Assembly (NCBI GenBank): GCA_965153455.1
Contig: OZ234493.1
Coordinates: 5,766,001-5,830,000 of the forward strand
Direction of reading: 5' to 3'
DNA: 64,000 nucleotides
From: Sphagnum compactum
Taxonomy: Eukaryota
Under the pieces are notes generated by a model, which saw only the letters and a program-made list of their open reading frames with translations, searched no databases and was not told the origin of the DNA. Shown one piece after another: positions 11,572 through 60,745 of the stretch. The first letter of the stretch is position 1. Every line of letters starts with the position of its first letter. Position numbers and translations under genes: made by a program.

Positions 11572-12879
11572 AAGTAAATGCCCATGTTTACTAGTGACCT
11601 ACGTGCAATGTTTAGCAAAACAATGCGGTGGCAATACCTAATATTTTTGGGATTTTGCAACATTCATCAAAATTTTGTCTGACTGTTTTTACTTTTACAC
11701 ACATTGTTTAGAAGTTTCAATCAAACAATAAAACTTTAATTAAAATTCATTCACCTACATAAGTTGAGCAAACCCAAAACCCAATTGTTTATGACTTTTT
11801 TTTAGCTAAAACTTATAAATTCAATCTTCCAACACCTACACTTGAAGATCATTAAAGTGTTTAAATTGATGTTGCTGTTGATTTTTCATTTAAACAACAT
11901 TCCATGATATTTAATGTTGTTTTAGTTGGATCAATGCAAGGTTTGTCAATCTACATTCTTTTTCAATGTCGAATGTTGTTATAAACAAAAAAATAGTCAT
12001 GGTTACCTCCATGGTAGCGTGTTGAAATTCACTCTTCCAAGTTGTTGGAAGTTTTTTTTTTCCCATCCTTTCAACATCATTGCTTCCTTGCTTCTTGACT
12101 CTTTCCATGTATTGTGTAACCATTAGCATATGCATGATTTTAAATTACTCATTTTGAAGTTGATGTTTGGATCATTGCCAAGTTTTCAATTATTCTTTAA
12201 TGACCCCTATTGGGCACAAGCATGGTTAGGTGGCTCACTTTTGACATTTTGAAGAGCCAAAATCTTACATTAACTAAAATTCTTGAAATTAAAACAAATA
12301 TCAAACTATAAATCCTATAATTATCTCCTTTTTTTGGTTATAAATGTTGGTAGGCCACCTTTTAAATATCACTAAACATGTGATTGGTTAAACACTCCAT
12401 ATCAAAGCTTAATATATTTCAATGTGAAATAAATAAATAAAATTAAAAATGATGAAAATCATTGTATTTAAAAAAATTATTGGGAAAGTTTCAATGCATT
12501 TTATTATTAAATTCATCATTTAATGTAGGCCTATTTTTTAATTTCATTTTGACACTATTAATGACATTTTGTTGAATCCACATTTTTTATTTTGTACGTG
12601 TGATAAAATGCAATGTCATCATTTTAAAAGTTCATTATGAGTCCATTTTTTAATTTTAAATCATTCATATTTTTCAATATGATTTTCATTAAATTCTACT
12701 ACAACATGGATAATTAAAAATTGATGATGTTAATGTTGAATATGGTTTTTACATTTTTAGTTCATGTACAATCCAAAATATCTTCAACTATGATGGTCCA
12801 AATTGTCCCCCTAACTATATTTTTGCCATAATGTCCGATTGTTGAACTATATTTTGAATTCATGCCTGAATGGGTGTTA

Positions 12880-39667: not shown

Positions 39668-40400
39668 CTTATTGAAATCAATGGTGAACATGAATATGAA
39701 ATGCAGGACATTTTGGATTCATGAGTTTTTAATCATCAACTTTAATACCTTGTTCGTTAATATGGGTATGATATGAACGAACACATTTTGGAACTAGTCA
39801 AAAACCAATTAAATGTTATGGAAAAGGTGCATGAATTTCATCGATGATATCCAAACAAGCTCAAGTTTGTTCCTTGTGGAACACATCATTAGAATGGGAG
39901 ATGATGTCATAGATGTCAATGCCATGGGGCTCATTTTTTTGAATGTTCATTCATGACTTGTATTAAACTTGTACCTAATTTTTAATTTAGTTTCAGTTCA
40001 CTCTTAGTTAATTTCTAATTAAGTCTTCATTCACTTCTAATTAATTTTTAATTAATTTTTAATTAAGTTTGAATTAACTTTTAGTTAACTCCCAGTGAAC
40101 TTCAAGTTAAATTTCAGTTAATTCTTAATCAAACTCCCAATTAAGTCTTAATTAATTTTTAGTTAAATCTTAATTAACTCCTAGTTGATTCCTAATTCAA
40201 CTTTAATTAACTTTCAATTAATTCATAATTGACTCTTAGTTAGGAAGGTTTTCAAGAAGTTTCTTTATTCAATGCACACACAGAAGCCTTTTTGGAAGTT
40301 GCCTTGAACTAGGTCCCCAAAGGGGTATAAATATAAGTAGGACCCTTCATTTCCTTCAATTTGTTCAACATCAGTCTTAGGCACGATCTTGCACCATAAC
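39668..40400 (+). mobile_element. Old chromovirus relic: pseudogenised chromodomain, PPT and 3' LTR
   Basis: IEINGEHEYEMQDILDS*...YLVR*YGYD...VHEFHR*YPNK parallels the young element's VEIEGQEEFEVQEVLDS...YLVFWRGY...RFHQRYPNK. It is followed by purine-rich GGGAGATGA then TGTCAT, a TATAAATA box and a ...CCATAAC end. Confidence 0.7.
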
Positions 40401-42213: not shown

Positions 42214-43075
42214 CTTTCTTTCTTTCTTTCTTTCTTTTAATTTAACGTCAATACCCGGACCAGAGAGATCCATTTGACGACAATTACATAGTTGACTTGA
42301 GCAAAACACTCCTGTTGTCTAGGCAAGAAACTAAGTACAAAGCTACCGCTTTCTGATTAGCCGAATGCATCAATTCAGGAAGTAAGCTGCACGGTGTCAA
42401 TTGTTTCCCTAATTGTTGACTAAACTTGCAACGAATGTCATGGTGAGCTGGGCACACTAACAACAAGTGGTCTTCATCCTCAACAGCTCCTAGGGAACAT
42501 AGACGACAAATCCTATCTCTCCTCGGGACATTCTCAGGCTTTGCATGCCTGCCACACTCTACCTCCAAACGATGGTTTGAACATCTGAACCTTGACAAAG
42601 ATTGCCTGAGCTGAACATTTGTGATCACTTGCAAATACCTCTTATGTGCATATGAGTATCCAGATTCTGTTGTACAGCTTGTGTTCATCAGCTGGTATGT
42701 ACGTAATCTGCTACTTTTAGTTCTGGCCTGTTCACCATAAGTAGATTCTAGGTAATAAGCCTGTGCACTTGCTATAGCACACTTGATATTAACATAGAGA
42801 ACCTCAACACCTTGGTATTTAAGCCACAACTGCACGTTCCGGAGCCAACATTGTTGGTTATCATTGAGCATGCTGAGCATCTGGATCTGGGTCTGGTAGG
42901 CACAGTACAACAGACGATCTGCTGTGGGTTTTTGTAGCCTATCATAATACCTGAGAGTTTGTTGCCACCAAAAATATTCTAATGGATACCTTCCAAACTC
43001 CCCCAACACAACAAAAATGCTTGTTGTTTTATTGACCCCTAATATTCCTCTCAGGAACATTCTATGTATAACCAA
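42214..43075 (-). mobile_element. 5'-truncated non-LTR retrotransposon (LINE) 3' end, RTEX-like
   Basis: Uninterrupted post-RT frame HRMFLRGILGV...VLGEFGRYPL...LSRFRCSNHRLEVECGRH...RICRLCSLGAVEDEDHLLLVCP (CCHC), stop at 42284. A short 3' UTR with a hairpin ends GACGTTAAA and is followed by a (GAAA)5 tail. Confidence 0.85.
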
Positions 43076-43203
43076 ATCAGCACATAAGGAACACAACACT
43101 AGTGTTTGATCACTATTTACTTTTTCCACGAGGATCTATTGAGTGTTGAAGTGGTGGTTAGAGGTTTGCTTAAGCCTTTGAAATAATATTCAAATTTTGG
43201 TTG

Positions 43204-43471
43204 TGTCATGGCCTAGGATATTTTGGGATACTTTTGGCAATGTCATGTCCTAGGATATTTTGGGATACTTTTGGCAATATCATGGCCTAGGATATTTTGG
43301 GATACTTTTGGCAATATCATGGCCTAGGATATTTTGAGACTAGTATGGCTCAGGGTTATAAAAGGAGATAGTCTGGGGAACAACCCTTTAGCAGATCAAC
43401 ACCAGTTGATGGATCAATAAAGCTTGTCTTGTCTTGTAATTCTCCACTTGTTTTGTAGTCGGTCCATAACA
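43204..43471 (+). repeat. 5' LTR (268 bp)
   Basis: U3 is ~3.6 copies of a 37-bp unit; TATAAAA at 43357; AATAAA at 43416; identical to the 3' LTR except for one extra T. Confidence 0.97.
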
Positions 43472-43473
43472 GT

Positions 43474-43483
43474 TTGATCTGCT
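43474..43483 (+). promoter_or_regulatory. Self-priming-type primer binding site
   Basis: TTGATCTGCT is the exact reverse complement of AGCAGATCAA (43390-43399) in the LTR. There is no TGG-starting tRNA PBS. Confidence 0.8.
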
Positions 43484-43612
43484 CCTTCTTCTTGTTTGTT
43501 TGTTTTGTTGTTTCAGTAAGTAGCTAGAGGTATATTGGAGTGAAACTTGGAAAGGTTATAGAAGACTATAGGACGCTTCTACTCTCAAAGTTTCAAAAGA
43601 AAAGGATATGTT

Positions 43613-43955
43613 TTGAGAGAGATCCAAGCATCTGAAGTTTCAAGTGCAGATCTGGTTTTTTGGTCATATCTCCTTTGTGTAAGCTTTTCTGGGTCTGTAA
43701 CTTTGTGATCTTATAGATCATATAGGAATATATGTGTGAGAGAAATTTCATGTCATTTGGACTTGTATTGAGAGAGATCCAAGCATCTGAAGTTTCAAGT
43801 GCAGATCTGGTTTTTTGGTCATATCTCCTTTTTGTAAGCTTTTTTGGGTCTGTAACTTTGTGATCTTATAGATCATATAGGAATATATGTGTGAGAGAAA
43901 TTTCATGTCATTTGGACTTGTATTGAGAGAGATCCAAGCATCTGAAGTTTCAAGT
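43613..43955 (+). repeat. 155-bp tandem repeat (2.2 copies) in the retroelement 5' UTR
   Basis: TTGAGAGAGATCCAAGCATCTGAAG... at 43613, 43768 and 43923; copies nearly identical. Confidence 0.9.
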
Positions 43956-43993
43956 TTGAAGATTGAAAGCGCAAAAGTGTGAGAACTATCACC

Positions 43994-44968
43994 ATGGACA
44001 ACTCAAAATCCAACATCGATCTCACTCAAATCCTCGCCGCCCTTCAACACCTTCAACAAGAAAATGCCGTGCTTAGAGACTCGGTGACCCGCCTACAGAA
44101 TCAGCCACCACCTCCTGCCCCAGTACTTCGTGCTCTTGCAATGGCCGCCCAAGAACCCAAGATCAGTCTGCCAAAAAAGTTTGATGGAACGCGCCTCAAA
44201 TTTCGAGGCTTTGTCAGCTAGGTACGCCTGATCATGCAACTACACCCCCGTCGTTATTTTGATGACACCACTCGTGTAGGATTCGTTGGAACCCTACTCA
44301 CTGGGACAGCTGCAGCATGGTTTACTCCCATCCTGGAAACATCATCCCCTCTTCTACAAGATTTCAACGCCTTTATGGCGGAATTTGAAGCAGTATTTGA
44401 GGACAGTGATAAGGCCAGGACTTCAGCCAACAAGCTGTGTCGCCTCCAGCAAGGGACACGTTCGGCCATCGTCTACACTTCAGAATTCAGGCAGCTTGCC
44501 TGTGACGTCAATTGGGGAGAAGCTGCCTTGATTGATCAGTTTCGCTGTGGGCTTCGTGATGATGTTCAAGATCTTTTGTTGACACTCGCAGACCCTTCTT
44601 CCTTCAGTGAAGCCATCACCCAGGCAATTCGGTGCGATAATCGTCTGTTCGAACGTCGCCAGGAAAAGAAAGTCACCTCCAACGCCCAGCTTTGGAACAG
44701 TCGGCCTATTACGCTCCCCTTAGTTCCCCAAACAACACCAGTTGCCCGACCTGCCTCTTTTGGACCAGCTCCGATGCAGATCGACACAGCTAAGTTTAAA
44801 TCTTTGACAGAAGCCGAGAAACTTCGCCAAAGGACAAACAATCTATGTCTTTACTGTGGCAACCCAGGGCATATAGCTCGTCAATGCCCTCAAAAGCTTG
44901 TCAAACTTCAGGTACAAGCTGTGGAAACTCCCCAGGAGTTGGAAAACAAGAACATCCAGTCACAGTAG
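43994..44968 (+). pseudogene. gag: Gag of the chromovirus, with one in-frame TAG at 44219-44221
   Basis: MDNSKS...EPKISLPKKFDGTRLKFRGFVS*VRLIMQLHP...LQQGTRSAIVYTSEF...PAPMQID...CLYCGNPGHIARQC (CCHC). Both listed ORFs (43979, 44234) are in the same frame. Confidence 0.9.
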
Positions 44969-47900
44969 GAGCCGTGCGACTGGATCTCACCCAACACCAC
45001 CTTTGCAAAGGCTCCTGTTCCGCTGTTGGTCCCAGTCCCAGTTTCACTCAGTATGTGGACATCATTCGTATTCCAGATGACATACCACAAGTGTCAGCTT
45101 TGGTGGACTCCGGCGCCACCTCTTCTTTCATCGACCAAACATTTGTCGTCCAACACAACATCCCTGTGGTCAAGAAGTCAACCCCTGTTCCGGTAGAGGT
45201 TATTGATGGGAGAACCATTGCTTCTGGTGCAATCACACACGAGACAACCCCTCTAGAACTCTGTATCGGTAAGCACACGGAGAAGATTGTTCTCAACATC
45301 ATTTCCACCCCTCACCATCCCATCATCCTTGGTCTGCCTTGGCTAGAAGCACACAACCCTATCATTGATTGGCGATCTAGAACCCTCACCTTCAGCGCAC
45401 AACGATGCACCTCTCAAGAACCCCACGCTCAGAAAAACACTTTGTCCAGTCCTGCCAAGAACCCTGTGGTCGAGAACCCAAAGAGGGTCGGAACCAATTC
45501 CAGTTTTATCAAGTCTGTTATGTCAAATCCTGCAGTCAAGAACCCCCGATTGGTCAGAACGAAACCTTGTCTTGTCAAGAATCTTGTCAAAAATTCTGCC
45601 CAAAAAACTAACCCTGTCCAGATCTTCGTTGATAGAGCTGTCCCTTTCTATCGGGCTGCTAAGAATCTTCAAGTCTTCGCCATCCATGTCAACCCAGCCA
45701 ACACCACAAACCCCCAATCGGAACCAACACCTGTCAAACTTCCCAAGAAGTACAAGGACTTTGTTGATGTTTTTGAAAAGATTAATGCTGATAAGCTCCC
45801 CGCCCATAGTCCATATGACTGCCTGATTGATCTAGAAGAAGGACAGTCACCACCCTTTGGTCCTATCTATGGCCTATCGGAACCGGAATTCCAAGCCCTG
45901 CGTGATTACCTTACTGAAAATCTTGCTAAGGGGTTCATTCAGCATTCCAAGTCTCCAGCCGGCGCCCCAATTTTGTTTGTCAAGAAGAAGGATGGCTCCG
46001 TTCGACTTTGTGTGGATTATCGTGGACTCAACAAGATAACCAAAAAGAATCGATATCCTTTGCCCTTGATTTCAGGTCTCCTAGATCGACTACGTACCGG
46101 GAAGATCTTCACCAAGCTTGACCTCCATGGAGCCTACAACTTACTCAGGATTCGCCCTGGTGATGAATGGAAGACAGTTTTCCGCACACACTATGGCCAC
46201 TTCGAATACACGGTCATGCCCTTCGGCCTCACCAATGCACCCGCAGTCTTTCAGCATCTGATGAATGATATCTTCCGGGATTACATGGACGAATTTGTCG
46301 TGGTCTATTTGGATGACATTTTAATCTTTTCCAAGGACCAGGAAACCCACGACAAACATGTACGATTGGTGCTTGCGACGCTGCGGGAGCATGGCTTATA
46401 CGCCAAGTTGGAAAAATGTAAATTCGACAAATCTTCAGTGGCGTTCCTCGGCTACGTGATCTCTCCAGATGGCATTTTCATGGACAAGTCAAAGGTCGAG
46501 ACCATCCAGTGTTGGGCTACTCCATCCTCGGTCAAGGACGTTCAACGCTTCCTAAGGTTTGCCAACTTCTATCGTCGGTTTATCAAAGGCTATTCCAAGA
46601 TCACAACACCGTTAATAACCCTGACTTGCAAAGACAAGCCCTTCTCGTGGAATCCAACGGCCCAGGTTGCTTTTGATACTCTCAAGATGGCATTCATCTC
46701 TGCACCCATCCTGATACATCCCGATCCTACCAAGCCATTCATTGTGGAAACGGACGCTTCAGATTTTGCCTTGGGAGCTATTCTATTTCAATTTGGAATA
46801 GATGGGTTGTTGCATCCAGTTGCTTTCTATTCACGGAAGTTAACCAGTGCCGAAATCAACTACCAGGTCTACGATAAGGAACTCCTGGCAATCATCACGG
46901 CATTCGAGCAGTGGAGACCGTATCTTGCCGGAGCTCAACATCGAGTCCAAGTTCTGACAGATCATAAGAATCTCCTTTATTTCACAACTACTCGGACTTT
47001 AAATCGTCGCCAGGCACGCTGGTCTATCTTCCTAGCTGATTTCGACTTTGAGATTCAGTATCAACCCGGCACCCAGCAAGGGAAAGTTGACGCGCTATCT
47101 CGTCGTTCAGAATATGAACTTCGAGCGGGGGATGAGGCCTACGGCCAGCAGAACCAGACTTTATTCAACCCCAAGCAATTTCGAGTTGCAGCAACAATCA
47201 GCACCCTCCCAGACTCATACCTTGTCAGGGACATCAAGATAGCAACTGAGGAAGACACCTGGGCTACCAACATCAAGAACGAACTCCAGGAACGACCAAG
47301 GAACCCAAATCGTGATGACTTGGATCAATTTGAGCAGCAAGACGGACTTCTTGTTCGAAATAACCTGATTTATGTACCCGAAGGACCTATACGCCTAAAA
47401 ATCCTGAGGGAATGCCACGACAACACCCTGGCAGGTCACTTTGGAATGGCACGGACTCACGAACTAGTGTCAAAGACTTACTGGTGGCCCAAAATGAACA
47501 AGATGCTACGGGAGTATGTCAAGTCTTGTGATACATGTGCTCGATCCAAGGCTCCCAGGCATCACCCGTTTGGACTCCTACAGCCTCTGTCGATTTTTAG
47601 CCAACCTTGGGGATCTATTGCAATGGACTTCATCACGGACCTCCCTACTGTCAGAACCAAGAATTCAATACTGGTTGTGGTCGATCGACTCACCAAAATG
47701 GCCCATTTCACCCCTTGTTCCAAGTTAATCACGGCAGAAGAGACAGCTCAGTTAATTCTGGACGGGATCGTCCGACTGCATGGACTCCCCGAGGAAATTG
47801 TGTCCGACAGAGGTCCTCAGTTTGCATCCAAGTTCTGGCATCGTCTATTCGAGCTTCTTGGAGTTGACATTCGGCTATCTTCAGCTTTCCACCCTGAGAC

Positions 47901-48699
47901 AGATGGACAAACCGAACAGACAAACCAGACACTCGAGCAATACCTTCGCTGCACTGTGAACTACCAACAGGACGACTGGCTGGACCTACTATCTCAAGCA
48001 GAGTTTGCTTATAATAACATAACACATGCATCGACCGGGATCAGTCCATTCTTTGCCAATTACGGTTTTCATCCCAGGTTCAGCCTTGAAATTCCTGGAG
48101 ACTCCGTAAACCCCTCGGCTGAAGAAAGGGCCATGAGGCTTGGACAGGTTCAACAGAACCTTATGGTAGAACTCAAGCTAACACAGGAGTGGCAAAAGAA
48201 GCAAGCAGACCGCCGACGCAAGGACCATCCAAACTTCAAGGTTGGAGACAAGGTCTGGCTTCTCAGAAAGAACATTGCTACCACTCGCCCATGTGCCAAG
48301 TTGGATTACAAGCGCCTCGGACCTTTCAAAATCGCCAAATTGGTTGGTCTAGTGGCTTGCCAGTTGGAGCTTCCACCCCAGTTCAAAATCCACAATGTTT
48401 TCCATGTCTCCCTGCTTGAGCCCAATCATGAAAACCCGATCCCAGAACGTCATCAAGAACCCCCAGCTCCAGTCGAAATTGAAGGCCAAGAAGAGTTTGA
48501 AGTTCAGGAGGTCTTGGACTCCAAGAAGATTCGTGGAAAGTTTCTGTACCTTGTCTTTTGGCGAGGTTATCCTCCTTCTGAAGCTACTTGGGAGCCTGCT
48601 GGAAACCTAGTTCATGCCCAAGACTTAGTTAATCGGTTTCACCAACGATATCCTAACAAACCGGCTCCATCTAGAAGATGTCGCTTGAGGAGAGGATAA
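44941..48699 (+). CDS. pol: Pol polyprotein (aspartic protease, RT, RNase H, integrase, chromodomain) in the -1 frame relative to gag
   Basis: LVDSGAT; LCVDYRGLN, YLDDILI; VETDASD, YDKELLAI, TDHKNL; H-H-C-C zinc finger, IAMDFITDL, VSDRG, GQTE; GPF; FEVQEVLDS..YLVFWRGY..TWEP. The frame is open to the stop at 48697-48699. Confidence 0.95.
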   Translation, partial: GKQEHPVTVGAVRLDLTQHHLCKGSCSAVGPSPSFTQYVDIIRIPDDIPQVSALVDSGATSSFIDQTFVVQHNIPVVKKSTPVPVEVIDGRTIASGAITHETTPLELCIGKHTEKIVLNIISTPHHPIILGLPWLEAHNPIIDWRSRTLTFSAQRCTSQEPHAQKNTLSSPAKNPVVENPKRVGTNSSFIKSVMSNPAVKNPRLVRTKPCLVKNLVKNSAQKTNPVQIFVDRAVPFYRAAKNLQVFAIHVNPANTTNPQSEPTPVKLPKKYKDFVDVFEKINADKLPAHSPYDCLIDLEEGQSPPFGPIYGLSEPEFQALRDYLTENLAKGFIQHSKSPAGAPILFVKKKDGSVRLCVDYRGLNKITKKNRYPLPLISGLLDRLRTGKIFTKLDLHGAYNLLRIRPGDEWKTVFRTHYGHFEYTVMPFGLTNAPAVFQHLMNDIFRDYMDEFVVVYLDDILIFSKDQETHDKHVRLVLATLREHGLYAKLEKCKFDKSSVAFLGYVISPDGIFMDKSKVETIQCWATPSSVKDVQRFLRFANFYRRFIKGYSKITTPLITLTCKDKPFSWNPTAQVAFDTLKMAFISAPILIHPDPTKPFIVETDASDFALGAILFQFGIDGLLHPVAFYSRKLTSAEINYQVYDKELLAIITAFEQWRPYLAGAQHRVQVLTDHKNLLYFTTTRTLNRRQARWSIFLADFDFEIQYQPGTQQGKVDALSRRSEYELRAGDEAYGQQNQTLFNPKQFRVAATISTLPDSYLVRDIKIATEEDTWATNIKNELQERPRNPNRDDLDQFEQQDGLLVRNNLIYVPEGPIRLKILRECHDNTLAGHFGMARTHELVSKTYWWPKMNKMLREYVKSCDTCARSKAPRHHPFGLLQPLSIFSQPWGSIAMDFITDLPTVRTKNSILVVVDRLTKMAHFTPCSKLITAEETAQLILDGIVRLHGLPEEIVSDRGPQFASKFWHRLFELLGVDIRLSSAFHPETDGQTEQTNQTLEQYLRCTVNYQQDDWLDLLSQAEFAYNNITHASTGISPFFANYGFHPRFSLEIPGDSVNPSAEERAMRLGQVQQNLMVELKLTQEWQKKQADRRRKDHPNFKVGDKVWLLRKNIATTRPCAKLDYKRLGPFKIAKLVGLVACQLELPPQFKIHNVFHVSLLEPNHENPIPERHQEPPAPVEIEGQEEFEVQEVLDSKKIRGKFLYLVFWRGYPPSEATWEPAGNLVHAQDLVNRFHQRYPNKPAPSRRCRLRRG

Positions 48700-48966
48700 T
48701 GTCATGGCCTAGGATATTTTGGGATACTTTTGGCAATGTCATGTCCTAGGATATTTTGGGATACTTTTGGCAATATCATGGCCTAGGATATTTTGGGATA
48801 CTTTTGGCAATATCATGGCCTAGGATATTTTGAGACTAGTATGGCTCAGGGTTATAAAAGGAGATAGTCTGGGGAACAACCCTTTAGCAGATCAACACCA
48901 GTTGATGGATCAATAAAGCTTGTCTTGTCTTGTAATTCTCCACTTGTTTGTAGTCGGTCCATAACA
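48700..48966 (+). repeat. 3' LTR (267 bp)
   Basis: Direct repeat of 43204-43471. Confidence 0.97.
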
Positions 48967-50278
48967 GGTTGGGTGCTATAATATCAAGGAGTGACTTCTC
49001 AATGCAAGTTATTCATTTGCAACTAAGCTGAATTTTGCAAGTAAACCAAATGTTGTAAGTTTGCCAACTTAATTTAGATCATTTTGTAATTTTGCTTGTC
49101 TTAACAACATCCGGTATTCCCCATGCATATTTCAAGTTTCTAAAATTTTCACCCTTTTGGCCATTCTTTCTCTCTCTCTCAAAATTGCAGTTCCTTTTCA
49201 ATCAAGTTCTTAATGTGCTTGAGGTTGTAGGTGAAGTAAGAATTTAAATTGGAGTTCACTTTCTTTTGAGATATTTTTGTTGTCGACATGTATTCAAATT
49301 CTTTGCAATGGAGGAGACTTGGGATCAAGGGGATGTTTTTGTTCAATATGTTGTTTTGGGAACAATTTCTCACCTTTAAAGAGGGAAAGATACTTTGCTG
49401 AAAAGATTGGAATCAGACTTTTTTTTTTTTTTTTTTCACTCTATCATTTCCACAAATAAATGTGTCTAATTGTTATCTAATTGTATGTATGTATGCCCAA
49501 GTAGCAGAAGCAGCCTTGTCGGGCACACCATTTCCTCCACAACAACACAGAAAATGTTCAATTCGCAAAGACTTTTCATTGTTGTGGGTCCACAAACCTT
49601 GGGATGGTTTTTGCAAACCTTGAGATGGTTTTTGTTGAAGAAATGATGGCAACCCACCAACTTGAGTCTTGTTCTCCTCAACAACCATGCACCTTGTCAA
49701 ATTGCATAATATGGTGGACCCTGGACTTTGATGGATTTTTGTAAAGAACTATACCCTAGTACCTTGGCTTGTTAGGTGGCTTGTTAGGTACTAATTAATT
49801 CTTTTTAGAAATGCCAAAAATTCTGAAAATTCTGTGCCTGCCATGCCAAAAATCTGAATGAAGCTCTCAAGCAGAATAGCTTCAATTTGTAGTATAATGT
49901 CAAATTGTATATTATTTTTATTTTCAAATAATAATAATTATAATAATAATAATTAATCCCAATATACATTTTCAAAACTGAACTCATTCTCACCATTGGA
50001 TCTTGGGGGTATGTCTTGTCAGTGGACCATAAAATTAGTGAACCTCTCAACAGAGAGTTGAAGAATTCATCAAACTTGCATATCATTTGGTACAGAGACA
50101 GTTTTGTACAACACATGTTTTGAAGAATAATTAATTTCATTTTGAAGATTTCCAAATTTCATGTCCCAAAAAATATCAATTTCCCAAATAATTCCCTATT
50201 TTATTTTACAAATAAAAAATTCCTAGGCAAAAAAAAATTGTTGAAAATTTCAACATTTCTACAAATAATATTACTTAT

Positions 50279-59013: not shown

Positions 59014-59036
59014 TAAACCCTAACCCTAACCCTAAC
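59014..59036 (+). promoter_or_regulatory. Telo-box cluster upstream of RRP9
   Basis: TAAACCCTAACCCTAACCCTAA ~180 nt before the ATG, typical of plant ribosome-biogenesis genes. Confidence 0.65.
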
Positions 59037-59203
59037 GGCAATCTGGGGTTGGGAACAAGCCCCCTTCTTCTTCTTCGTTGTTCTCGGTATGGAGACCGAA
59101 TTGTGTTGGGCATTGTGGGCATGGCGATGGCGAAGAAGCTGCTGATAGTGTGCTCGAGGATTTGGTTATTGAGATAGTCAGACGAGAGAGAAAGAGAGAA
59201 ATC

Positions 59204-60745
59204 ATGGCCAAGGTGAGGAAGAGGGGGCAGCCGCGAAGCTCCCGTCAAGCCAGCAACGGCAGCAGCACGAAGAAAAGAAGGACAGGGGAGAAGGAAAATG
59301 TAGGTGGAGGAGGGCGTGGAAAAAACAACAAGGATGCGTCGTCTTCGTTCAAGAAGCCTGTGAGAGACGAGGAGCTTCTAAGCGAGGAAGATGAGTTCGA
59401 TAACGGTGCTCCAGATATCCCTTCTTCCCCAGATGAAGGTGAGGATGCTGCAGAGTTGGAAACTGCTGACGAGAAGCGCTTACGTCTTGCTAAATCGTAT
59501 TTGGATCGAACTCGGCAATCGGTTGCTGATGCAGAGGAGGATGAGGAGGAGGATCAAGATGTGGAGCAGCGAAGAGGGGCCAGAGATAGCATGGTTGCGG
59601 ATTTACTCCAGCAAGAACAGCTTGAAGAGAGCGGTCGAATACAGCGCAAGCTGGCTGCCAGAGTGCTTGCACCAGCAACACTTCAGGAAGGACGGCCAGT
59701 AGGCCGAAAGCATCGCCAAGCCGTGACAGCGGTATGTATCTCTGAAGACGACTCCACAGGGTTTGCCGCATCCAAGGATGGTCTATTGGTACAATGGAAC
59801 ATCGAGACAGGCTTGAGTGAGAAGTACGAATGGCCTTCTTCCCAACAAGAGCCTTCCAAAACAAATGGTAGCAAGAAGAAGCAGCAGGGAAGTCGGCACA
59901 TTCTTGCAGTAGCAACTAGCTCAGATGGCCGCTATCTGGCATCAGGAGGATTGGATAGGTCTGTACATATCTGGGACACTCGCACTCGGCAACATCTCCA
60001 GGCTTTTGCTGGTCACAGGGGAGCTGTGACAAGTCTAGGGTTTAGGAAAGGCACCCAACAGCTTTTCTCTGGTTCTCTGGACCGCACTATCAAGCTATGG
60101 AGTGTGGATACACGTTCTTACATTGACACATTGTATGGTCACCAAAGTGAAATTGTCTCTCTTGATTGTCTGCGACAGGAACGGGTCCTTTCTGCAGGCC
60201 GTGACCGCACACTGCGGCTTTGGAAGATTCCAGAGGAATCCCAACTTGTGTTCAGAGGTCATGCAGCTCACATGGAGAGTTGCTGCTTCATATCCAATGG
60301 GGAGTTTCTTTCAGGTTCTGATGATGGTTGTGTGGCTCTGTGGAATACAATACGGAAGAAGCCAGTTTCTATCATGCGGAATGCACATGGAAGTAGTTCA
60401 GGTGTACAACATCAGACCACAGAGAATGCAAATGGGTTAGCAGCAGCAGCAGCAGCGGGAGCTGCAGAGTCTTGGGTAGGAGCAGTAGCAGTTTGCAGTA
60501 GCAGTGATCTGGCAGCATCTGGAGCTGGGGATGGAACTGTGCAGCTGTGGGCACTTGAGGATGCAAACCGCAGTCTTCGAGCACTTCATGGTTTGGCAGT
60601 GAAAGGATTTGTGAATTCCTTGGCTTTTGCAAACTCAGGTCGCTTCCTTCTTGTGGGTACAGGACAAGAGCCTCGAATGGGTAGATGGGCAAGGAATCCT
60701 GATTCCGAGAATAGAGTTTTCCTCCATCCTATCAGTTTGAGGTAA
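59204..60745 (+). CDS. RRP9: U3 snoRNP-associated WD40 protein (RRP9/U3-55K, YAO-like), 513 aa, no introns in the visible CDS
   Basis: Basic and acidic N-terminus, ETADEKRLRLAKSYL, WD40 repeats (SSDGRYLASGGLDRSVHIWD; YIDTLYGHQ; RERV-like LRQERVLSAGRDRT), C-terminal GQEPRMGRW. The first in-frame ATG is at 59204; the TTG start at 59078 in the ORF track is unlikely. Confidence 0.93.
   Translation: MAKVRKRGQPRSSRQASNGSSTKKRRTGEKENVGGGGRGKNNKDASSSFKKPVRDEELLSEEDEFDNGAPDIPSSPDEGEDAAELETADEKRLRLAKSYLDRTRQSVADAEEDEEEDQDVEQRRGARDSMVADLLQQEQLEESGRIQRKLAARVLAPATLQEGRPVGRKHRQAVTAVCISEDDSTGFAASKDGLLVQWNIETGLSEKYEWPSSQQEPSKTNGSKKKQQGSRHILAVATSSDGRYLASGGLDRSVHIWDTRTRQHLQAFAGHRGAVTSLGFRKGTQQLFSGSLDRTIKLWSVDTRSYIDTLYGHQSEIVSLDCLRQERVLSAGRDRTLRLWKIPEESQLVFRGHAAHMESCCFISNGEFLSGSDDGCVALWNTIRKKPVSIMRNAHGSSSGVQHQTTENANGLAAAAAAGAAESWVGAVAVCSSSDLAASGAGDGTVQLWALEDANRSLRALHGLAVKGFVNSLAFANSGRFLLVGTGQEPRMGRWARNPDSENRVFLHPISLR

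Follow-up and report, generated by a model that had tools for sequence, protein, structure and literature searches.

We describe an intact Ty3/gypsy chromovirus in the moss Sphagnum compactum that very probably carries a programmed −1 ribosomal frameshift signal at its gag–pol junction, in which a slip site and a short spacer precede an RNA structure that is probably an H-type pseudoknot. The element lies in a 64,000-nucleotide (nt) stretch of genomic DNA (GenBank assembly GCA_965153455.1, contig OZ234493.1, positions 5,766,001 to 5,830,000 of the forward strand), which we refer to as the window and in whose coordinates all positions are given. It occupies 43204–48966 (5.76 kb), is present in the window as a single copy and, judged by its sequence, is young, intact and active-looking. 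Its pol frame is −1 relative to gag, and the two frames overlap by 169 nt (44800–44968). A first-pass annotation of the window had read this junction as a −1 recoding site. The frames, the A AAC heptamer, the 6-nt spacer and a first stem that is common to relatives and covaries all support that reading. The junction comprises the following features, where L numbers denote related loci from the metagenome scan described below.

44234–44968, + strand: gag open reading frame (ORF); first ATG at 44234, frame open from 44222, stop TAG at 44966–44968.
44800–48699, + strand: pol frame, −1 relative to gag, encoding protease, reverse transcriptase, RNase H, integrase and chromodomain; 1299 codons (1299 amino acids).
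About 44846–44893, + strand: CCHC zinc knuckle of gag (Pfam zf-CCHC).
44941–44947, + strand: candidate slip site G GAA AAC, part of TTG GAA AAC in gag frame.
44948–44953, + strand: spacer of 6 nt (4–7 nt in 21 of 24 related elements).
44954–44964, + strand: 5′ arm of stem 1, 11 positions, with A44962 unpaired in the window copy.
44965–44974, + strand: loop of stem 1, GUAGGAGCCG, which contains the gag stop and the 5′ arm of stem 2.
44975–44985, + strand: 3′ arm of stem 1, with covariation.
44967–44973, + strand: putative 5′ arm of stem 2, to which U44966 is added if a U·G pair is counted.
44986–45009, + strand: loop 3 of the proposed pseudoknot, 24 nt, of the same length in L001, L002, L072 and L005.
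45010–45017, + strand: putative 3′ arm of stem 2, GGCUCCU, with G45017 included for a U·G pair with U44966 (the eighth pair).

Re-reading of the sequence and its frames found every coordinate of the first-pass annotation exact, and bore out a pol frame at −1, G GAA AAC at 44941–44947, a 6-nt spacer (eukaryotic −1 signals have about 5–9 nt) and a gag stop TAG inside the stem 1 loop (44966–44968). From this layout we infer slippage at the heptamer G GAA AAC.

The same arrangement recurs in related elements. A metagenome scan with the pol alignment yielded 593 candidate stretches, 574 of which were relatives, and the best 80 were kept, giving 79 loci. A scan of viral contigs with the protease–reverse transcriptase protein matched 12 patterns and brought up no relative. 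Adjacent gag and pol matches were found at 44 of the 79: pol was −1 relative to gag at 36, in the same frame at six (among them L003, with its deletion) and +1 at two, both decayed. Among the 37 junctions examined, 33 carry a heptamer of our pattern list, in frame and just before the gag stop. GGAAAAC is in frame in the window and in L003, L005, L007, L023, L028, L050 and L079, with L020 and L072 added by later scans; it recurs in frame in about eight lineages. The sister elements L004, L006 and L065 have GGGAAAC at the same place, and the other heptamers are GGGAAAT/A, AAAAAAC/A, TTTAAAC/A, GGGTTTT and GGATTTT. Across the sequences compared, AAAC is the constant part of the heptamer and its first three bases vary among relatives. 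A hairpin of at least 5 contiguous base pairs (bp) follows in all 24 non-redundant elements and starts 4–7 nt past the heptamer in 21 of them. Two side observations belong here. The sisters L048 and L066 carry GGGTTTT (L048:431) and GGATTTT (L066:236), respectively, before the same hairpin, a second GGG/GGA swap at the P site. A group of more distant chromoviruses (L043, L050, L079 and L052) has a different hairpin, whose loop GCACA pairs with UGUGC 8–13 nt downstream and covaries; this is probably a separate pseudoknot family.

Stem 1 has strong covariation. It had been annotated as eight exact pairs extendable by CA/TG, and both parts stand: ATCCAGTC (44954–44961) is the reverse complement of GACTGGAT (44978–44985), and C44963–G44976 and A44964–T44975 extend the helix past an A44962/C44977 mismatch. 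What the annotation did not have is the full length of the helix, which in relatives is really an 11-bp stem. In the subgroup nearest to the window element, heptamer, spacer and stem together span 45 nt, which are 15 pol codons and hence give a gap-free alignment; in it, stem 1 pairs positions 14–24 with 35–45, the window mismatch falling at position 9 of the stem. The covariation set comprised ten sequences after L015 was dropped for a MAFFT gap within the stem (by eye, L015 has the same 45-nt architecture). In this set 93.6% of cells are paired and eight of the 11 pairs show two-sided changes (17 cells), a level reached by 0 of 500 shuffles; controls in which the partner was slid by 1–3 columns gave 14–35% pairing. 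RNAalifold, run on a longer alignment, independently predicted the same 11 pairs. For example, L004 has ACC...GGT where the window has GTC...GAC, with a synonymous change on the 3′ side (CGA CTG to CGG TTG), and the pair 44957–44982 is C–G in the window, U·G in L002 and U–A in L001.

The significance of stem 1 was assessed on the 90 nt 3′ of the heptamer with 2,000 dinucleotide-preserving shuffles. A hairpin as good as stem 1, starting 3–8 nt past the heptamer, arose in 22 of these, and helices like stem 1 and stem 2 together arose in none. A covariance model of the unit from heptamer to stem matched only at these junctions, with a second match in the window at 12035 (E = 0.17), and Rfam 15 gave no match up to E = 1 over 43200–49000. 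A definition of stem 1 taken from minimum free energy (MFE) folds was dropped, as it chose spurious outer helices, and was replaced by an explicit hairpin search.

The balance leans towards stem 2 forming as well and closing an H-type pseudoknot. The loop sequence AGGAGCC (44967–44973) is the reverse complement of GGCTCCT (45010–45016); this helix was already proposed in the first-pass annotation, and its complementarity proved both exact and rarer than chance, with covariation that is only limited. The predicted knot has a stem 1 of 11 bp, a loop 1 of 1–2 nt, a stem 2 of 7–8 bp, a loop 2 of 1 nt and a loop 3 of 24 nt. Loop lengths of 1–2 nt over stem 2 and 24 nt over an 11-bp stem 1 are compatible with groove crossing in such a knot. 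In the same 2,000 shuffles, a loop-to-downstream helix as good as stem 2 appeared in seven. A separate set of 300 shuffles gave p of about 0.007 for stem 2 of the window, and combining 24 elements by Fisher's method gave p = 2.4e-4. Loops also fit their own downstream regions better than those of other elements (permutation p = 0.017, eight lineages).

The position of stem 2 is also kept. Counted by eye, its 3′ arm lies at offsets 25–30 after stem 1 in the window, L001, L002, L072 and L005, and is displaced by −9, +3 and +9 nt in L004, L009 and L012, respectively. These displacements are multiples of three, so that the arm falls on the same codons (GGN YCC) in the three elements. The central two pairs of stem 2 are free of amino-acid constraint and are complementary in the window, L072, L004, L009 and L012, being A–U/G–C in the window and L004, G–C/A–U in L072 and A–U/G·U in L009 and L012. 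In L005, stem 2 has a G–C pair plus a mismatch at this place, or else a 5-bp helix shifted by one. Both L072 and L005 have G–C where the window has A–U, and one pair of stem 2 runs through G–C, G·U and A–U. In an alignment of nine sequences (A7), 50 of 53 cells of the six core pairs are paired, compared with 22–61% when the partner is slid. MAFFT misplaces the 3′ arm of L004 in A7 (GCUCC, 9 nt nearer); L004 was kept and so counts against stem 2. The distant families have covarying helices of their own between loop and downstream sequence, GCACAAAC with GUUUGUGC in L050/L079 and GCACAGG with UCUGUGC in L043 (7–8 bp).

These features suggest how the signal may work. Most ribosomes on the genomic RNA would end gag at TAG 44966. 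A fraction would pause while tRNA-Glu occupies the P site (codon GAA) and tRNA-Asn the A site (codon AAC), and during this pause the 11-bp stem 1, 6 nt downstream, would stand at the entrance of the mRNA channel. A tandem −1 slip would then take the A site from AAC to AAA, the classic A AAC slip, and the P site from GAA to GGA, with two Watson–Crick pairs kept and a central G·U. Translation would go on in the pol frame across a predicted junction ...ELEN-QEHPVTVGAVRLD... (reading ...ELEN-QEHPV...), and the product would be a Gag–Pol fusion at a fixed low ratio to Gag. Retroelements commonly set their Gag:Gag-Pol ratio by −1 frameshifting.

Several observations weigh against this account of the junction. 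First, the heptamer is not of the form X XXY YYZ: AAAC fits YYYZ, and positions 1–3, GGA, fail at the P site. In L009 and L012 the heptamer position reads ATCAAAC, GTCAAAC or GTTAAAC, which leaves almost no P-site re-pairing; slippage in these elements may be essentially an A-site event, and the variants suggest that P-site re-pairing matters little in this family. Second, the covariation of stem 2 taken alone is weak: two-sided change is seen in only one of its six pairs, and, the columns being conserved, 41 of 500 shuffles pair as well as the alignment does. Third, a conserved Gly-Ser/Pro dipeptide (GGN YCC) is encoded where the 3′ arm of stem 2 lies, so that part of the conservation of this arm could be protein-driven, and for five of the eight sister lineages tested the best helix between loop and downstream sequence does not surpass those of shuffles (p = 0.3–0.9). 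Fourth, the nested MFE fold of 44941–45030 is unremarkable (z = −1.13; 27 of 200 shuffles fold as well), and it uses stem 2 without stem 1, a nested fold being one that cannot represent a pseudoknot. Last, decayed copies hold pair-breaking variants that are uncompensated, 45015 C>A in L001 and in sequencing run X8, and 44982 G>A in X8. Of the runs, X8 is the only one with 44963 C>T, 44982 G>A and 45015 C>A; its many C>T and G>A changes show that it represents decayed copies, and these variants were used neither for nor against selection.

The likeliest alternative grants the signal and dispenses with the knot: the stimulator would be the 11-bp stem-loop alone, and the match between AGGAGCC and GGCUCCU would be fortuitous or a by-product of conserved Gly-Ala/Gly-Ser codons. 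We take this possibility seriously while considering it rather doubtful. Stable hairpins can replace pseudoknots, and the weak covariation statistics of stem 2, the five of eight sister lineages whose helices are no better than shuffles and the placement of the 3′ arm on the GGN YCC dipeptide are all as a lone hairpin would have them. Harder to square with it are the seven in 2,000 shuffles that match the helix, and a register shared with the window by L001, L002, L072 and L005, from which L004, L009 and L012 depart by multiples of 3 nt. At the two central pairs that amino acids leave free, complementarity persists in five elements including that of the window, and the distant L043 and L050/L079 have 7–8-bp covarying helices of their own between loop and downstream sequence.

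A second alternative moves the shift away from the heptamer, to somewhere else in the 169-nt overlap, or makes pol by splicing, reinitiation or RNA polymerase slippage. The length of the overlap (44800–44968) and the non-canonical heptamer leave some room for it, and we consider it very unlikely. The shift should lie 3′ of the zinc knuckle because the knuckle (to about 44893) must stay in Gag. Relatives with gag and pol in a single ORF exist at 54–56% identity (P0020, P0023 and P0049). Gag aligns to residues 73–297 of P0049 and the pol frame from 44932 (PGVGKQEH...) to residues 309–441 of the same protein, and this homology confines the switch to about 44896–44944. The overlap holds no in-frame heptamer of the canonical form X XXY YYZ, and GGAAAAC, 6 nt before the conserved stem, is the only candidate shift site. 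A 397-nt contig from an RNA library (44939–45335) has no gap relative to the window, and four As are too few for transcriptional slippage.

The arrangement of gag and pol is not put down to decay because the element is young and intact, with long terminal repeats (LTRs) that are 99.6% identical, a 5-bp target-site duplication, a self-priming primer-binding site (PBS) and open gag and pol frames. The sole difference between the LTRs is one T in a run of T, and both have TG...CA ends. Beyond the coding frames, the element has the following features.

43199–43203, + strand: left copy of the 5-bp target-site duplication GGTTG, repeated directly after the 3′ LTR at 48967–48971.
43204–43471, + strand: 5′ LTR, 268 nt, with TATAAAA at 43357 and 99.6% identity with the 3′ LTR.
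43390–43399, + strand: AGCAGATCAA in the 5′ LTR, the likely transcript start and self-primer.
43474–43483, + strand: PBS-like TTGATCTGCT, complementary to LTR positions 43390–43399, a Tf1-type self-priming layout.
48700–48966, + strand: 3′ LTR, with the purine-rich tract GAGGAGAGGATAA directly upstream.

The sequence TTGATCTGCT begins 3 nt past the 5′ LTR, its complement AGCAGATCAA lies 33 nt downstream of TATAAAA, and no tRNA-type PBS was found after the 5′ LTR. Gag matches Retrotrans_gag (1.6e-17), Ty3_capsid and zf-CCHC in Pfam. The Pfam domains of Pol are, in order, RVP_2, RVT_1, RT_RNaseH, Integrase_H2C2, rve, SH3_Tf2-1 and Chromo (6e-14), the order of a Ty3/gypsy element ending in a chromodomain. 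The stop codon of pol runs directly up to the 3′ LTR, and the polypurine tract GAGGAGAGGATAA (48687–48699) codes for the C terminus of Pol.

Other copies of the element show the same frames. Contigs from three DNA runs and one RNA run, compared with 44400–45400 (30 of 30 bins covered), contain no indel at a share of at least 10% among the variants listed; 144 further variants exist beyond these, and absence among those listed is not proof. Word depths over this kilobase are in the thousands and therefore indicate a high-copy family. The metagenome copies L001, L002 and L003 have 82–90% protein identity to the window element and align to it without a gap from the zinc knuckle of gag up to and including the loop of stem 1; in L001 and L002 the gap-free stretch takes in both 3′ arms as well. 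GGAAAA(C/T) and the same frame relation are kept in L001, L002, L003 and L072. The first three of these are decayed, with a nonsense codon in gag (L001), several stops (L002) and a 41-nt deletion (L003). This deletion in L003 (90% identical; L003:3642–3700) runs from the 3′ arm of stem 1 to that of stem 2 and removes both 3′ arms. That recoding is absent altogether, this copy or its assembly having lost one base, for instance in the A run, from a functional family with a single frame, is thus a highly improbable explanation: single-ORF relatives at 54–56% identity and a run of four As as a plausible place for an indel speak for it, and against it stand the lack of an indel at that share among the variants listed for four runs over 1 kb, the four copies with the same heptamer and frame relation, the −1 arrangement at 36 of 44 related loci, the near-identical LTRs and the conserved heptamer, spacer and covarying stem.

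From its domain order, self-priming, moss host and fungal relatives we infer that the element belongs with the Tcn1 clade (Tf1/Sushi group), which it resembles; in non-seed plants, chromoviruses of this clade have moss or club-moss hosts. Fungi (Cunninghamella, Powellomyces, Batrachochytrium and Microbotryum) account for most of the named relatives of its Pol, to which a few distant animal and algal matches are added; the best Pol matches overall, at 62–64%, are metagenome contigs of 5 kb. Among the sequencing runs that contain the element are six metatranscriptomes of mosses or plants. The Tcn1 clade, to whose published description moss chromoviruses with close fungal counterparts conform, is placed in the Tf1/Sushi group by Neumann et al. 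(PMC6317226; the moss and fungal description also in PMC3350952), and self-priming is reported for the Tcn1 clade (PMC6317226). The fit to this clade lies in the element being a moss chromovirus, close to fungal ones and self-priming. As a separate observation on the proteins, the database Pol sequences P0003–P0011 of related elements start with MQLD or MRLD, and the corresponding ATG lies inside the loop or the 3′ arm of stem 1. Gene callers therefore cut these Gag–Pol genes at the frameshift signal.

Programmed −1 frameshifting at Ty3/gypsy gag–pol junctions is well known in animals and fungi. The present junction shares with those signals a gag/pol overlap, a heptamer and a 3′ structure, and differs in that the element is in a plant. 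According to the summary given in PMC5009743, a 2003 survey described −1 signals in animal and fungal Ty3/gypsy elements; for plants it reported only two types with separate frames, both +1, and none with pol at −1.

The nearest known parallel is PEG10/Edr, a mammalian gene domesticated from a sushi-type Ty3/gypsy element, which is described with GGGAAAC and a compact H-type pseudoknot (PMC13622457, PMC5009743). Both have pol at −1 across a gag–pol-type junction and, after a heptamer that ends in A AAC, a short spacer, followed in PEG10 by a compact H-type pseudoknot and here probably by one as well. The PEG10 heptamer GGGAAAC itself occurs in L004, L006 and L065, and the element groups are related (Tf1/Sushi). 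The two differ in heptamer (GGAAAAC here), in the moss host and in that the present element still looks mobile; moreover, frameshifting is a measured property of PEG10 and a predicted one of the present element. The likeness is one of architecture and is not a claim of homology for the pseudoknot itself. The first-pass annotation had called the junction a PEG10-like signal in a plant retrotransposon. Its architecture, the sister elements with GGGAAAC and the plant host uphold that description; the non-canonical nature of GGAAAAC, on which the annotation did not remark, qualifies it.

The pseudoknot of the coronavirus infectious bronchitis virus (IBV) has a stem 1 of 11 bp, a loop 1 of 1–2 nt, a stem 2 of 6–8 bp and a long loop 3, and follows the slip site U UUA AAC after a 6-nt spacer. 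The dimensions predicted here match these values, with a loop 3 of 24 nt; the two signals have no sequence relation, and the slip sites differ. A parallel to the slip site itself comes from fusagravirus-like double-stranded RNA viruses (FpV2, FpV3 and PMeV), for which a GGAAAAC site is predicted immediately before the stop of ORF1; in those sites AAAC is conserved and the first three bases vary between GGA, GAA, AAA and GUU (PMC4881467, PMC4863961). A variable triplet followed by AAAC is also what the present family has, with GGA, GGG, AAA, TTT, ATC and GTT. Those viruses are unrelated to retroelements, and their sites are only predictions.

In the literature searched, we found no description of a −1 signal in LTR retrotransposons of mosses or other plants; in that literature the 2003 survey is represented by its summary, and a 2008 paper on moss chromoviruses lay outside the search. 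A paper on Tcn1-like elements (PMC2864245) contains 0 occurrences of 'frameshift', 'slippery' and 'pseudoknot'. Tentatively, and with slightly less than even credence, we put forward a joint reading in which the junction would be the first documented −1 signal of a plant LTR retrotransposon and would represent an undescribed RNA family, absent from Rfam, of fungal and moss Tf1/Sushi chromoviruses. This family would have an H-type pseudoknot of IBV size and a slip site in which G GAA AAC is interchangeable with G GGA AAC, would cross kingdoms and would work on plant ribosomes. If so, the 11-bp stem overlies the codons of a conserved Pol peptide, P-x-T-V-G-A-x-R-L-D, and the signal moved between kingdoms together with the element. 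Such an element, high in copy number and apparently active in Sphagnum, with a signal supported by covariation, would give a naturally occurring plant system for studying −1 frameshifting other than that of RNA viruses, and its natural series of GGG and GGA P-site variants is suited to testing the weight of P-site re-pairing. The heptamer with its 11-bp stem may also serve as a compact marker for annotating gag–pol junctions in moss and fungal chromoviruses, which gene callers now split.

Some further features of the window concern the element's non-coding parts and its surroundings. In the leader between the 5′ LTR and gag, a 155-nt stretch is tandemly duplicated with 97% identity (43604–43913), and both LTRs start with about 3–4 tandem copies of a 37-nt unit (43204–43340 and 48700–48835). 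Upstream of the element lies an AT-rich array with an 11-nt period (39945–40240), and an open frame of 283 codons on the − strand (42284–43135), with no Pfam match, adjoins the 5′ LTR. Farther downstream, at 59036–60745, a 569-codon open frame encodes a WD40 protein resembling the U3 small nucleolar ribonucleoprotein-associated YAO/EMB2271. Over 86% of its length this protein matches one from Sphagnum compactum with 100% identity, which identifies the host, and the next named matches, at about 60%, come from other bryophytes.

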